A stretch of DNA of 64,000 bases from Octopus sinensis (taxonomy: Eukaryota). Within the stretch, counting starts at the first letter, position 1. Every line of letters begins with the position of its first letter. The stretch is taken from positions 106,702,001 to 106,766,000 of the forward strand of contig NC_043000.1 in the NCBI RefSeq assembly GCF_006345805.1. Reading direction: 5' to 3'. Both the position numbers and the translations under genes were made by a program. Positions 13,977 through 44,621 of this stretch are shown one piece after another. Under the pieces are notes generated by a model. That model did no database searches. It was given only the letters and a program-made list of their open reading frames with translations, and was not told where the DNA came from.

Positions 13977-14009
<33 letters not shown>

Positions 14010-14194
14010 CATAACCAGTATAACCAGTATAACCAGCCGAAATTGCAAAGATAATCTGGAACTCGACTGAGGATAGAAAACGCCGAATGATCCGTCCTTG
14101 TTTTCCTTGTATTGTCTGTCTGGATATTTTGTTTTCCCTTTTTTTGTTTCACCTAATTGTCTGGATGTTTTGTGTTCTTATCCCATTTTTGTAT

Positions 14195-14229
<35 letters not shown>

Positions 14230-14231
<2 letters not shown>

Positions 14232-14395
14232 CTTTCTACCATAAATACCAGGCCTTGGTATCTACTATTTTATCGACCTTGCAAAGATAAAAGGCAAAGT
14301 CGACCTTGGCGGAAGTTTAACTCAGAACGGAAAGCCAAAAGAAATGCTGCTAAGCATTTTGCGCAGAATGCTAATTGATTCAGCCAGCTCACCGC

Positions 14396-14397
<2 letters not shown>
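14230..14397 (-). mobile_element. degenerate SINE family B
   Basis: AAAGGCAAAGTCGACCTTGGCGGAA..AACTCAGAAC. Confidence 0.75.
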
Positions 14398-14437
<40 letters not shown>

Positions 14438-14579
14438 TGTGTGCGTACGCGCTCGCGCGCGTGAATATATATATATATACAATTATGTATGTATGTATGT
14501 ATGTATGTATGTATGTATGTATGTATGTATGTATGTATGTATGTATAGATGGATGGATGGATGGATGGATGGATGGATA

Positions 14580-15151
14580 ATGTAATTGCTGAATTATTCC
14601 GCGCCGGTAAAAGCGCTGGGCAGATTGTTAAAGCCACAAATTATGCCAAATCTACTGTCTTTAGAGTTGTAGTGAAATTGAAGTCAGGATGTTCAGAGAA
14701 AGCGTCACAGTCCTTGTAGTGACCGACAACGCACACCTCGCTTCTAACAGGACTTGAAAGATTTAGTGAGTCGAACCCATCAAAATCGATGACGAAGTCG
14801 GCTCAAGATCTAGGAAACAATAAAATGACCGTTCCTAGGGCTGTGAGACAAAATATGAGATCGTACGTGAGAAGACACCGTAACATCCTAACTACAACTG
14901 TGTGTCTTCACTGAAGGCTTTGATCAAGCGAAGTAAAATGAAAAAAAAAAGAAATACTTAAGACATGCGCATCATTTCATAAACGGATTGAACTGACAAA
15001 GAGATCAAATGGTGGTAACATTGAACTGAAGTAGGTACTAAACACTCCACAATAGTTGGCATAAATATAAAATTTGCAGTGTTTGAGTTTCCGAGTTATA
15101 CCAATTATAATAAAAATAATTAAATGGTCTCAATTTACCTGTTACACCCTG
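14580..15151 (+). mobile_element. internally deleted Tc1/mariner (maT-like) transposon
   Basis: HTH region IAELFRAGKSAGQIVKATNYAKSTVFRVV; C-terminal GGNIE; right end ACACCCTG. Confidence 0.65.
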
Positions 15152-15195
15152 TGTGTATGTGTGTATGTATGTATGTATGTATGTATGTATGTATG

Positions 15196-15940
15196 TATTG
15201 TCAATAATAATAAGGGTAAAATTAATTAATTAATTAGTAATTAATGATTTTATCAAGCAGTGTTCAGTATGTAAAAGGACCTTTTACGGTAAATTTAAAC
15301 ATTACTTTATATAATTAGGGTTCAGCAAAAAAATTTGCTTTACCACACACCGAACTTTTAGAAATGCAGCCAAAGAATTTAGCTATTTCCTCTACTATAA
15401 GAAGAGTCTCCCAGACAATGTATACTCAAAAACAATTCACGTAGGCATAGAGGGAAAAATAACGAAAGTTCACTCGAAAATAGATTACTTGTGAACGCGT
15501 TTCTGGGTTAGTTAGATATAAAGATGCTAGAAATATATCCCTATTCCAACATTCCTGTCATCAGCACAAGATTTCATTAAATTTAAATTTGAGAGCACTA
15601 AAAATCGAACATACCCATCAGATTTGAGTAACCTCAGACGGACCATCCTCGACATCCAGTACTAACGAATTCAAAACGTACGAATGAGGCTTTGCATCCT
15701 CCCCTGTCCACCCACGTGAGTTATAGAGCAACAAATTCCTACAGAAGGATCTGTAGTTTATTATCAGGGAGAGAATTATATTGTCAATAATAATAAGGGT
15801 AAAATTAATTAATTAATTAGTAATTAATAATTTTACCAAGCAGTGTTCAGTATGTAAAAGGACCATTTACGGTAAATTTAAACATTACTTTATATAATTA
15901 GGTTCAGCAAAAAAAATTAGTTTACCACACACCGAACTTT
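15196..15940 (-). mobile_element. hammerhead-containing non-coding element: 583-bp monomer plus 162-bp partial tandem repeat (pLTR/retrozyme-like)
   Basis: 15196-15358 is repeated at 15779-15940. (TATG)n on both sides; hammerhead at 15488-15570. Confidence 0.8.
15488..15570 (-). ncRNA. type I hammerhead ribozyme with palindromic minimal stem III
   Basis: CTTGTG-CTGATGA-[long stem II]-GAAACGCGT-T-CACAAG. 6-bp perfect stem I and GUU triplet; two mismatches at the base of stem II. Confidence 0.8.
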
Positions 15941-16000
15941 ATGTATGTATGTATGTATGTATGTATGTATGTATATATATATATATATATATTATATATT

Positions 16001-16057
<57 letters not shown>

Positions 16058-16059
<2 letters not shown>

Positions 16060-16200
16060 ATTTTTTTCTCCTTGTTTTTCTCTGTGGAAGAGCGTAGGCT
16101 CGAAATGTAAAAGACTTTTTCAATTCCCGAGCGTTATACTAATGTATTTGTTTGTTTTCTACACCACCTGTTTTCGTCTTTTGCTTTTTTCGTGAATTCT

Positions 16201-16204
<4 letters not shown>
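16058..16204 (+). mobile_element. short (TA)n-embedded element with a variant hammerhead-like motif
   Basis: CTGTGGA-A-GAGCGTAGGCTC-GAAATGTA-AAAGA at 16082-16114; homologous to 40914-41090. Confidence 0.6.
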
Positions 16205-16246
<42 letters not shown>

Positions 16247-16261
16247 TATATATATAATATA

Positions 16262-16297
<36 letters not shown>

Positions 16298-16310
16298 TGT
16301 ATGTATGTAT

Positions 16311-16524
16311 GTCTTTGTGTCTGTGCTTATCTCCCTACCACCGCTTGGCAACCGATATTGGTGAGTTTACGTCCCCGTATCTTAGCAGTTTGGCAAAAGT
16401 ACCGATAGAATAAAGGCTAGGCTAAAAAAGTCCTGAGATTGATTTGTTCGACTAAGTTCCTTCAAGGCAGCACTCTAGCATGGCCGCAATCAAATTACTG
16501 AAGCAAGTAAAAGAATTAAAGAAA
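16311..16524 (+). mobile_element. SINE family A, 3' half
   Basis: Homology to 1955-2161. Confidence 0.8.
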
Positions 16525-17435
16525 ATACCTTTCAGATGGTGTAGATGACGACTGTTTCTGAATTTAATGTTAAAAGAAAAAAGTTAGAATCGGGGGTGAA
16601 ATTATTCACGCATCTCAACTTTGTTTCCTCATCTTTTGATTATATAGATTACAATTATGTCGAAAAAATGACTTCGAGACCCTGCTATTTCTAGCAAATT
16701 AAACGACCAGGTAGAGGAAAAACACATTTTACAAAAAGCTGATGAGAAGAAGAAACTTCAAAGTTGATATTTTTGTTAAAATATGACGGGTAATTTTGGA
16801 AGTATTCTTTTAGGTAATAAAAATATGGGTAATAGAAAATATGGCCAACATAAAATAATTGTAATATAACTTTTATTATCAAACTTTTTGGTGGTAATAT
16901 AAAATAATGTGATTAATGATAATTTTCAATAGAAAATATTTATTACCTTAAAATTAAACAAAACAAATTTCTCATTTGTATAACTCCTCCCATAACTATT
17001 CTATCACTGACTCCTCCTCCGCCTCCTCCCCAGCCTCCTCCACCTCCTGCACTACCTCCTCCTCCCCTCATCCTCATCCTCCTTTATGATTTTTTTTCTG
17101 TGTGTGTGAGTGTGTGTGCGTTCCCTTTCTGCCATCACTCCTACTTATGTGTACTCACCCTACAACTCTTAACATTCTCTCTAGCTCTCTTTTACTCTCT
17201 CTCTCTCCCACTTTCTCTACACGAAGAAAACAACCAGTCAACCAACCAGCCAACCAGCCAATATTTATATCAACTATAATTATATAGAGCTAAGCTTGTC
17301 GTATCTTAAGGATGAATTACCAGAAAAACAATGGTTGAACTTTAAAATAATTCTCTTTTCAAATCTAATAATTTTTACAATCATATTTGAAAAAAGAAAT
17401 TAAAATTGTCGTGAAAACTAAAAAGCAAAAGGTTA

Positions 17436-17639: not shown

Positions 17640-19421
17640 TTTCATAAAGGATTTTGAAAATTTTCATCAAAATTTTTGATAAATTTCATTAAAATTTTCA
17701 AAAATTTTCAATAAAATTTTCAAAAAATGTGGATGAAAATTTGGATGAAAATTTTCAAAAAACTTTCAAAAATTTTTATGAAAATTTTCAAAAAACTTTT
17801 CAAAAGTTTTGATGAGAATTATCAAAAACCTCTTCAAAAATTTTGATGAAATTTTCAAAAAATCAATAGAATTTTCATGAAAATAGATTTTTAAAATTTT
17901 GATGAAAATTTTGATTAAAATTTTCAAAAGATTTTCAAAAATTTTGATGAAAATTTTCAAAAATTTTGATGTAAATTTTCAAAATACTTTTCAAAAATTT
18001 TGATGAATATTATCAAAACCTCTTCTCAAAATTTGATGAAAATGTTAAAAAAACTTTCAAAAATTTTTATGAAAATTTTCAAAAAACTTTTCAAAAGTTT
18101 TGATGAAAATTATCAAAAACCTCTTCAAAAATTTTGATGAAATTTTCAAAAAATCTTCAAAAATTTTTATGAAAATTTCCAAAATCTTTCCAAAATCAAA
18201 AATTTTGATGAAAATTTTCAAAAAACTTTTCAAACATTTTGATTAAAATTTTCAAAAAACTTTTCAAAAATTTTGATGTAAATTTTCAAAACACTTTTCA
18301 AAAATTTTGATGAAAATTATCGAAAGCCTCTTCACAAAATTTAAAAAAAACTTTCAAAAATTTTGATGAAAATTTTCACAAATCCTGATTAGAATTTTCA
18401 AAAAACTTTTCGAACATTTTCATGAAAATTTTCAAAAAACCCTTCCAAAATTTTGATGAAAACTTTCAAAAAAACTTTCAAAAATTTTTATGAAAATTTT
18501 CAAAAAGTTTTAATGAGAATTATCAAAAACCTCTTCAAAACTTTTGATGAAATTTTCAAAAAATCTTCAAAAATTTTTATGAAAATTTCCAAAATCTTTC
18601 CAAAATCAAAAATTTTGATGAAAATTTTCAAAAAACTTTTCAAACATTTTGATTAAAATTTTCAAAAGACCTTTTCAAAATTTTGATGAAACTTTCAAAA
18701 CAACTTTTTTTCAGAAATTTTGTTGAAAATTTCCCAAAAACTTTCCAAAATTTTCATGAGAATTTACAAAAATTTTGACAAAAATTTTCAAAAAACTTTT
18801 TTTTTGATGAAAATATTCAAAAAAGTATACAAAATTTTGATGAAAATTTGCAAAAAGCTTTCAAAAATTTTGATTAATATTTTCAAAAAACTTGTCAATA
18901 TTCTTGATGAACATTTTCCAAATAACTTTCAGAAGTTTTTATGAAAAATTTCAAAAACCTTTCCAAAATTTTGATGAAAATTTTCAAAATAGATTTTTAA
19001 AATTTTGATGAAAATTTTGAGAAAAATTTTCAGAACTTTTGATTAAAATTTTCAAAAGATTTTCAAAAATTTTGGTGAAAATTTTCAAAAATTTTGATGT
19101 AAATTTTCAAAATACTTTTCAAAAATTTTGATGAAGAGGCTTTGAAATTTTTGAAGAGGCTTTTGAAACTTTTCATCGAAACTTTTGCAAAGTTTTTTGA
19201 AAATTTTCATCAAAATTTTTGAAAAGTTTTCTGAAAACTTTTATGATAATTTTTGAAAAGTTTTCTGAAAATTTTCATGAAAATTTTTGAAAAGTTTTTC
19301 GAATGTTTCCTTCAAAAGTTTTGAAAATTTTCATCAAAATATTTGAAAATTTTTTGAAAGATTTTATCAAAATTTTTGAAAAGTTTTTATAAAATTTCAT
19401 CAAAATTTTTGAAAATTTTTG
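17640..19421. repeat. AT-rich satellite array (~21-33-bp unit AAAATTTTGATGAAAATTTTCAAAAAACTTTTC) with orientation switches
   Basis: Short reverse block at ~17650-17725, forward block ~17730-19135, reverse block 19136-19421. Higher-order blocks are repeated (18180/18590; 17880/18987). Confidence 0.92.
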
Positions 19422-24460: not shown

Positions 24461-25025
24461 TTTTTTCTACTCTAGGAATAAGGCTCGAAATTTTGAGGGA
24501 GGAAGCCAGTCGATTAGATCTTAATTTATCGACTCTGAAAGGATGAAAGGCAAAGTCGACCCCGGCGGAATTTGAACTCAGAACGTAGCGGCAGACGAAA
24601 TACCTATTTCTTTAGTACCTACAAGGGGCCAAACACAGAGAGGACAAACAAGGACAGACAAACGGATTAAGTCGATTATATCGACCCCAGTGCGTAACTG
24701 GTACTTTTTTAATCGACCCCGAAAGGATGAAAGGCAAAATCGACATCGGCGAAATTTGAACTCAGAACGTAACGGCAGACGAAATACCTATTTCTATTTC
24801 TTTACAACCCAGAAGGGGCTAAACACAGAGAGGACAAACAAGGACAGACAAACGGATTAAGTCGATTATATCGACCACAGTGTGTGACTGGTACTTAATT
24901 TATCGATCCCGAAAGGATGAAAGGCAAAGTCGACCTCGGCGGAATTTGAACTCAGAACGCAGCAGCGGACGAAATACCACAAAGCATTTTGCCCGGCGTG
25001 CTAACGCTTCTGCCAGCTCGTCGCC
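24461..25025 (-). mobile_element. SINE family B trimer (one head, three bodies)
   Basis: Units joined at GAAATACCTATTTC (24597, 24781). Confidence 0.9.
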
Positions 25026-44056: not shown

Positions 44057-44621
44057 TATTTCTTTATTGCCCACAAGGGGCTAAACATAGAAGGTACAAA
44101 CAAGGACAGACAAAGAGATTAAATCTATTACATCGACCCCAGTGCGTAACTGGTACTTAATTTATCGACCCCGAAAGGATGAAAGGCAAAGTCGACCTCG
44201 GCGGAATGTGAACTCAGAACGTAGCGGCAGACGAAATACCTATTTCTTTACTACCCACAGGGGGCTAAACACAGAGGACAAACAAGGACAGACAAACGAT
44301 TAAGTCGATATATCGACCCAGTGCGCAAATGTTGTCTTATTTTATATCGACCCCGAAAGGATGAAAGGCAAAGTCGGCCTCGGCAGAATTTGAACTCAGA
44401 ACGTAGCGGCAGACGAAATACCGTAAGCATAACGTTAGCACGCCGGGCGAAATGCTTTCCGGTATTTCTGAGTTCAAATTCCGCAGAGGTCGACTTTGCC
44501 TTTCGGTGTCGATTAAATAAGTACTAGTTACGCACTGGGGTCGATGTACTCGACTTAATTCCTTTGTCTGTCCTTGTTTGTCTCCTCTATGTTTAGCCCC
44601 TTGTGGGCAATAAAGAAATAA
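44057..44621. mobile_element. SINE family B dimer (-) joined head-to-head with a (+) copy
   Basis: Outer ends CTTATTTCTTTATTGCCCACAAGGGG / CCCCTTGTGGGCAATAAAGAAATAAG; orientation switch at ~44430. Confidence 0.88.

Follow-up and report, generated by a model that had tools for sequence, protein, structure and literature searches.

Penelope-like elements (PLEs) leave behind a recognizable set of insertion products, which the sections of the published reports drawn on here describe as partial tandems, a tail at one end, an inverted 5′-truncated arm and a bias towards (TA)n targets (PMC8557442, PMC3846280), and the tail, when mapped in vitro, is reported to be the RNA between two start sites of the reverse transcriptase (RT) (PMC11167929). 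A CX2-5CxxC linker is given as the mark of PLEs of the Neptune/Nematis type (PMC8557442). For other retrozymes, circles have been demonstrated (PMC7229834), and a recent preprint (Li, Clavereau and Pollet 2026, bioRxiv 10.64898/2026.07.22.740005) reports, in the part available to us, cleavage in one of nine dimers and makes the case for retrozymes as non-autonomous derivatives of PLEs; non-LTR retrozymes, understood in this way, are an already published class. In this work we describe an ORF-less, 583-nt hammerhead repeat from Octopus sinensis, which, judging from its sequence, is likely to belong to the non-LTR retrozymes, and which is very probably a non-autonomous PLE of that type, its RNA probably being bound in trans by a PLE enzyme. 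What is new is the long tail with a strict pairing of start sites, a hammerhead variant kept in three families and a young sister family. The literature that we searched on octopus hammerheads, retrozymes and non-autonomous Penelope elements contains no description of the family, although Repbase, subscription journals or preprint supplements may hold one.

The locus lies at positions 15196-15940 of the window (the whole stretch of 64,000 nucleotides that was analysed, contig NC_043000.1, positions 106,702,001 to 106,766,000). It is formed by a full 583-nt unit of what we call family A (15196..15778, minus strand, the RNA reading from 15778 to 15196; 34% GC, without ORF) and by a 5′-truncated upstream unit (15779..15940, minus strand, unit positions 1-163), which is the equivalent of a pLTR-like partial tandem. 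The stretches 15196-15340 and 15779-15923 are direct repeats spaced by 583 nt, with 92% ungapped identity, which becomes 96% over 163 nt once gaps are allowed between the 15779-15940 copy and the start of the full unit; the divergence between the two halves of the insert is 3.7%. A (TGTA)n target flank (15150..15198) adjoins one end and a (TATG)n followed by (TA)n flank (15940..16056) the other, where a target-site duplication is unreadable. The initial annotation had described a non-coding 583-nt unit followed by a 162-nt repeat of its own start inside (TATG)n, and this is borne out by the spacing of the direct repeat, by the microsatellite flanks and by the longest stop-free frame within 15196-15940, which has 64 codons (GC 0.34). 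The minus strand of the unit also folds far better than its shuffles (z -5.7), which is not the case for the plus strand (z -1.3). Elsewhere in the window there are a 1.8-kb degenerate AT-rich array with strong self-complementarity (AAAATTTTCA-type, period 11-12; 17655-19419) and tandems of 182-190-nt SINE-like units (24520-24978 and 44057-44422), which recur in many locus flanks.

A search of the genome (2.72 Gb) returned at least 76 family A matches from the best 40 of 2602 candidates scored, and exact searches returned at least 353 matches for an 18-mer at unit positions 215-232 and 82 for a 19-mer over the ribozyme (some loci being counted twice), with 0 for the backwards control of each; the repeat is therefore the dispersed, ORF-less, multi-copy family that the initial annotation had envisaged. 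Family A copies lie 2.5-7.9% from the column majority (2.6% for the copy at 15196-15940). Two sister families were also found. Family B, revealed by a neighbour in locus L095 (L095:745-1308, G000:C4:76582758; also L145-L163 and L263), has a 564-nt unit about 70% identical to A, copies that are about 2% apart, tandems reaching 4.6 units and a perfect 12-nt palindromic stem III. Family C (L164-L183) is older and more numerous, with 319 exact 19-mer matches, a hammerhead with a GUA cut and 67-74% identity to A over long stretches; it was uncovered via a motif from loose contig ends in four runs presumed to be RNA, and L127 holds a further C-like variant. In the alignment of the sister families the row C_L182, which is in reversed orientation, was disregarded. 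The consensus fold of the three families contains a long rod, which pairs the sequences flanking the ribozyme on both sides, and a common structured 3′ domain (15215..15390, minus strand: a hairpin, a multiloop and an AU-rich end hairpin), which, from this model of the fold, may be a protein-binding region. Two short motifs are also kept in A, B and C: a splice-donor-like GTATGT (window 15609-15614, minus), suggestive of a possible intron, and an E-box-like CACGTGGGT (window 15712-15720, minus), suggestive of a possible promoter.

On the minus strand, 15570..15488 reads CTTGTG-CTGATGA-54 nt-GAAA-CGCG-TT-CACAAG, and it is predicted to be a cleaving type I hammerhead (15488..15570). Its parts are a 6-bp stem I (15570-15565 with 15493-15488), the CUGAUGA core (15564-15558), the GAAA (15503-15500), a stem III formed by the palindrome ACGCGU (15500-15495) and a predicted cut after U 15494, all on the minus strand. 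The core CUGANGA, GAAA, UH and the palindromic helix III are thus all present in the family A motif. Three candidates came out of a relaxed hammerhead scan that covered the window on its two strands, and the one at 15488-15570 has the 6-bp stem I together with the palindromic stem III. In the family A alignment the CTGATGA core is kept in 29-31 of 31 copies per column, while the second pair of stem I is U-A in 31, G.U in 29 and A-U in 2 of 65; family B has a UUGAG/CUCAA stem I (23-24 of 24 per pair) and one family C copy has yet another paired hexamer, ACUAUA/UAUAGU. In A and C stem III is formed by ACGCGU, in B by AACGUUAACGUU; A and B have GUU as their cut triplet, C has GUA, and position 17 is U in 61/65 family A and 24/24 family B hammerheads. 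Over the A/B/C consensus fold 19 of 110 pairs are doubly changed, stems I and II included (9 related sequences, with few independent events). Since the motif is kept in family A and covaries in the sister families, it is more than chance, and both the minus-strand hammerhead read by the initial annotation and the conserved core and stem covariation that it looked for in a family consensus are found. The Rfam hammerhead models, which it had named as a further check, did not recover the motif, either on 14000-17000 (E<=1) or on the 121 nt of 15470-15590 (E<=10), nor did they match the family B motif (E<=10), these searches returning only chance matches to microsatellites and snoRNAs. Since Rfam misses this form of hammerhead, such elements are undercounted. 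Folded alone, the 121-nt motif has a z of +0.33, and the minimum-energy fold of the 583-nt monomer does not form the ribozyme.

Stem II (15504..15557, minus) departs from the helix of about 14 bp first described, in that a distal helix of 14-15 bp does exist, but a base of 2-3 bp and a 3x3 internal loop come before it. Next to the core C15557 stands opposite A15504 as a mismatch, followed by the AGG/CCC base (in this copy A.C, G-C, G-C) and the AAU/UAA internal loop. The loop and the N.A mismatch are kept in 25/25 family B copies, where the GGG/CCC base of family A has become AGA/UCU. The initial annotation had ascribed the imperfect base to CpG decay of CGGG/CCCG. We rejected this origin for CCCA, since CCCA is the family state (81/82 of the genome-wide exact 19-mer matches over the ribozyme), an A precedes GAAA in 68/70 family A hammerheads and the N.A mismatch recurs in all three families (A.A in 25/25 of B, C.A in 2/3 of C). 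In addition, CpG columns of the family A alignment diverge by only 6.8%, against 5.1% for the other columns. The other strand of the base is variable: behind the extra A, at the place of G10.1-C11.1, 27 of 65 copies have G-C and 37 have A.C, and CAGG is carried by 41/70 family A hammerheads, in linkage with the G.U stem I subfamily (Fisher p=0.0006). CAGG may have arisen at a CpG in source elements, and, as it tracks a subfamily marker, it was inherited from these source elements and not decayed copy by copy. These source elements kept transposing, which suggests that transposition can do without efficient cutting. Having a single ribozyme whose stem II base is 2 bp long, the copy at 15196-15940 is probably inert.

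How the family moves is indicated by the anatomy of its insertions, which we mapped for family A in 89 loci with 93 non-redundant insertions, after dropping 11 loci as assembly or overlap duplicates (the duplicated insert of L140 being counted twice, both times in the class "other"). The 125 outer 3′ ends, in the sense of the RNA, fall mostly (106/125) in two zones, namely S1 (unit positions 1-13; 49 ends) and S2/S3 (S2 at 94-103 with 33 ends, S3 at 104-118 with 24), and the segment ends of the first 100 matches are similarly distributed (S1 41/100, S2/S3 49/100). In the window, S1 corresponds to 15196..15208 (minus) and would be the RT start that gave the 3′ end of this insertion; S2/S3 (15289..15313, minus; unit positions 94-118), within the multiloop of the 3′ domain, would be a second start, used by other copies. 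The sequence between S1 and S2 (15196..15289, minus) is a PLE-type tail of 94 nt, or up to about 118 nt with S3. TA runs adjoin 79/125 outer 3′ ends, some of the remaining ones being beside TATG, GATA or GAT runs, and at every start site a UA-rich stretch matches the target. The outer 5′ ends (n=61) are scattered from unit position 49 to 583, and 27/93 insertions cross the unit junction as partial tandems.

Inverted insertions make up 32/93 of this set, and S1 is paired with S2/S3 in 17/18 of those with two defined ends (P=7e-5 against random pairing; L138 and 13 inverted inserts with an undefined end excluded). The pattern was replicated in 69 insertions from 67 new loci, where 27 are inverted and 18/19 pair S1 with S2/S3 (8 with an undefined end excluded); the second arm of one insert, L195, is only 31 nt long. 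With both sets pooled, 35/37 inverted inserts have one arm per site, so that the tail is on one arm only, and family B shows the same pattern, with ends at b562 and b465-472. This geometry (one-sided tail, inverted 5′-truncated arm, partial tandem, TA bias) is of the PLE type and supports, for an ORF-less and multi-copy unit, the non-autonomous, PLE-mobilised status proposed by the initial annotation. Some further observations concern the ends themselves. In L016 the two flanks, too, repeat each other in inverted orientation, while both arms start from S1, which may be a larger palindrome or an assembly feature. Just 5′ of S3, A and C have AACCCUAA (window 15312-15322, minus), which we take to be the reverse complement of a TTAGGG-type telomere repeat; B has GCCCUAA there, and ACCCU precedes S1, so that telomere-like motifs may mark the start sites, or be there by chance. 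Unit positions 232-242 (window 15427-15437), where 20/100 segments end, many of them at inversion joints beside the GAGTATACTC palindrome, are a hot spot of stalling or fold-back.

These products can be accommodated in a single mechanism. The structured RNA of the unit would be bound in trans by the RT and GIY-YIG endonuclease of a PLE, which would nick a (TA)n-type microsatellite on each of its strands. cDNA would be primed at two internal sites of the RNA, one strand using S1 and the opposite strand S2/S3, with short UA matches assisting. One long arm would give a direct, 5′-truncated insert; two arms joined mid-way would yield a palindrome in which a single side carries the tail, the priming on opposite strands being what we infer from the pairing; and reading beyond one unit would give a partial tandem such as that at 15196-15940. 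The hammerhead is under structural selection in the source elements but probably cuts only part of the templates. Alternatively, the unit could be a satellite or resemble a SINE, its copies being made by a LINE enzyme or at the DNA level, and its hammerhead would be vestigial or due to chance. Such a repeat would agree with the blindness of Rfam to the motif in A and B and with the local tandem expansion that does occur; against it, neither a poly(A) nor a single 3′ end is seen in the family A insertions, which have two start zones paired across inverted arms, the stems carry compensatory changes in three families and the folding is strand-specific, all of which makes this alternative highly improbable.

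Mobilisation by a PLE enzyme may also involve the full retrozyme cycle, a narrower version of the same explanation, in which tandem transcripts would be cut as dimers and ligated into a 583-nt circle that would serve as template for all inserts. To this version we would give somewhat less than an even chance. Ends were mapped on a sample of 100 matches, the first of those selected 3′ of the cut, which is predicted at unit position 298. Nine segment 5′ ends fall at 293-303, within 5 nt of the cut, for about 3.3 expected (estimated by hand from the average rate of the table; Poisson p=0.007), and this excess would fit the cycle, but a sharp pile-up at the cut was not seen in the 100 segments: 1/100 lies exactly on it, and the larger pile (20) at 232-242 means that stalling of the RT at hairpins can explain the excess. 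The cut site is read past (beyond 310) in 54/100 segments and 14/100 reach the unit junction, both of which a circle allows; with more than half of the segments running past the cut, most templates must have been uncut or re-ligated. The long rod around the ribozyme would hold the cut ends together. In tandems, common lineage markers are found in both units, with no consistent fixed difference between unit 1 and unit 2, so that either one unit was read twice (by way of a circle or a template jump) or a homogeneous array was the source. Uncut read-through transcripts with template jumps would give identical inserts, and insertion of Poseidon is reported to proceed in vitro without need of hammerhead cleavage (PMC11167929, in the sections drawn on). 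The sole long multimer, that of 4.6 units in family B, has inner units that are 99.3-99.8% alike, against about 98% for the outer arms, which, from the sequences compared, points to local expansion after insertion and does not favour a rolling-circle origin. Contigs from the four runs that we guess to be RNA listed neither piles of starts or ends nor a splice-type joint. Against the trans-mobilised PLE reading as a whole stand two observations on the ribozyme, namely that two hammerheads on the same strand are present in only 2/93 family A insertions (the insert at 15196-15940 having one hammerhead) and that the monomer's minimum-energy fold lacks the ribozyme.

Candidate partners are present in the genome, which contains intact ORFs with RT and C-terminal GIY-YIG (775-781 aa, CX4CxxC linker, copies 97-99% alike) and with an overlapping upstream frame. 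The young intact PLEs at L054:674-4374 and L053:2745-5818 have an upstream frame that overlaps the RT-EN frame, as in the frameshift type, and CCAAT and TGACGT motifs recur in their 3′ regions, L054 also showing a tentative hammerhead with a UUGAUAA core. Another autonomous PLE, L061, carries in its 3′ region a hammerhead with U.U at the place of the N.A mismatch. Other, unrelated hammerhead motifs occur in neighbouring repeats (L053:6340-6420 minus, L024:2076 onward, L148:473 and L168, one of them with a 54-nt stem II spacer), and this genome thus contains several more ribozyme repeat families.

The unit could be the pseudo-LTR end of an ORF-bearing PLE, its copies being 5′-truncated ends or solo pLTRs. 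Hammerheads, tails and inversions of this kind are reported for pLTRs (PMC4209133, PMC3846280, in the sections drawn on), and a rare parent can hide in a search that scored only the best 40 of 2602 and the best 150 of 5029 candidates. Nevertheless, segments that reach position 583 return to position 1 (28/33, with at most 1 mismatch in 10 nt, and 14/14 in the 100-match sample), and in none of the 33 and 14 unit-end segments does the unit run into coding sequence. By tblastn over 223 loci, PLE coding sequence is no more than 200 nt away from a unit at L138/L141 only, where the unit is joined directly, on the same strand, to a 5′-truncated and internally deleted PLE, 88% like L069, with a start site at the far end; we read this single chimera, which speaks for mobilisation by a PLE, as a template switch. 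Fragments of PLEs close to units in L046, L122 and L180 were discarded as nested neighbours, with microsatellite or more than 1 kb in between. Moreover, 583 nt is long against the 193-218 nt given for pLTRs (PMC3846280, in the part consulted). The initial annotation had noted that the element would be just a solo pLTR if all other copies were termini of ORF-bearing PLEs; in no copy seen here is the unit such a terminus, so that, on present evidence, the unit is not a solo pLTR, and we hold that origin to be unlikely. Three observations run against mobilisation by a PLE itself: the tail is about three times the 30-40 nt reported; the pair G10.1-C11.1, which PMC4209133 describes, in the sections drawn on, as highly conserved in PLE hammerheads, is here A.C in 37/65; and, in the small sample of 35 distinct GIY-YIG places out of 150 listed and 25 relatives of the junction PLE, none has terminal sequence in common with A, B or C, the junction chimera being a single case.

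More speculatively, and with a likelihood that we put as rather low, the families could belong to one clade, of three members or more, that parasitises PLEs by way of circular RNAs and whose conserved 3′ fold sets two RT starts at a distance of about 90-118 nt. Their hammerhead would be of a slow, undescribed subtype, with a GUU cut, an N.A mismatch by the core and a long stem II that keeps the AAU/UAA loop; the long rod would shut it so that cut RNA re-ligates, and the autonomous PLEs of the genome would have the same stem II variant. Independently of this, the locus family offers hundreds of natural insertion products from one short template, and it adds the evidence of an insertion footprint to a retrozyme-PLE link that, in the sources drawn on, rests on co-occurrence and homology. 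The young family B (about 2% apart) and intact PLE ORFs, in one genome, are suited to the published in vitro PLE assay, which could address trans-mobilisation, the spacing of the start sites and the need for cleavage. This bears on the role of the PLE hammerhead, on a circular intermediate and on what sets the tail, the questions posed by PMC4209133, PMC8557442 and PMC11167929 in the sections cited.

In comparison with the systems described so far, as represented in the sections of the sources drawn on, family A resembles the metazoan non-LTR retrozymes (Cervera and de la Pena 2020, PMC7229834; 2026 preprint) in being non-coding and low in GC, with one type I hammerhead per unit, in its dispersed and tandem copies and in its co-occurrence with PLEs, and its 583 nt are within the 51-972 bp range given in the preprint (10.64898/2026.07.22.740005). 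It differs in consisting mostly of monomers and 1.x-mers, and the insert at 15196-15940, with one ribozyme, falls outside the two-unit rule of the preprint for an active element. The published link between retrozymes and PLEs consists of shared motifs, co-occurrence and pLTR homology, whereas here it consists of the tail and the paired start sites, and a pLTR homologue did not turn up in the places examined. With the EN+ PLEs of the Neptune/Nematis type (PMC8557442, PMC3846280, PMC11167929) the family shares the partial tandem, the inverted 5′-truncated arm, the tail at one end, the (TA)n targets, the hammerhead near the 3′ end and the internal start sites, while it has no ORF and a tail of 94-118 nt (about 90 nt in family B) instead of 30-40 nt; additionally, its start sites have UA matches to the target, whereas Poseidon is reported to be primed in vitro without homology (PMC11167929).

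The hammerhead itself is like the minimal type I hammerheads of PLEs (PMC4209133, as far as the sections drawn on describe them) in its intact core, the extra nucleotide after A9, the long helix II and a palindromic helix III suited to dimers, and unlike them in a second extra base, an A before G12, which produces the N.A mismatch, in a spacer of 30-55 nt in helix II that retains the AAU/UAA loop, in the U at position 17 and in the first pair, which is here G-C, A.C or A-U. Finally, the non-autonomous Chlamys elements, such as MRC1 (PMC8557442, in the same sense), likewise lack an ORF, have pLTRs, form head-to-tail inserts and are moved by a PLE. Those of the MRC1 type resemble their autonomous partner at the 3′ end, a similarity not seen for family A in the places examined, and most Chlamys elements are described as being without canonical hammerheads, whereas family A keeps its ribozyme.
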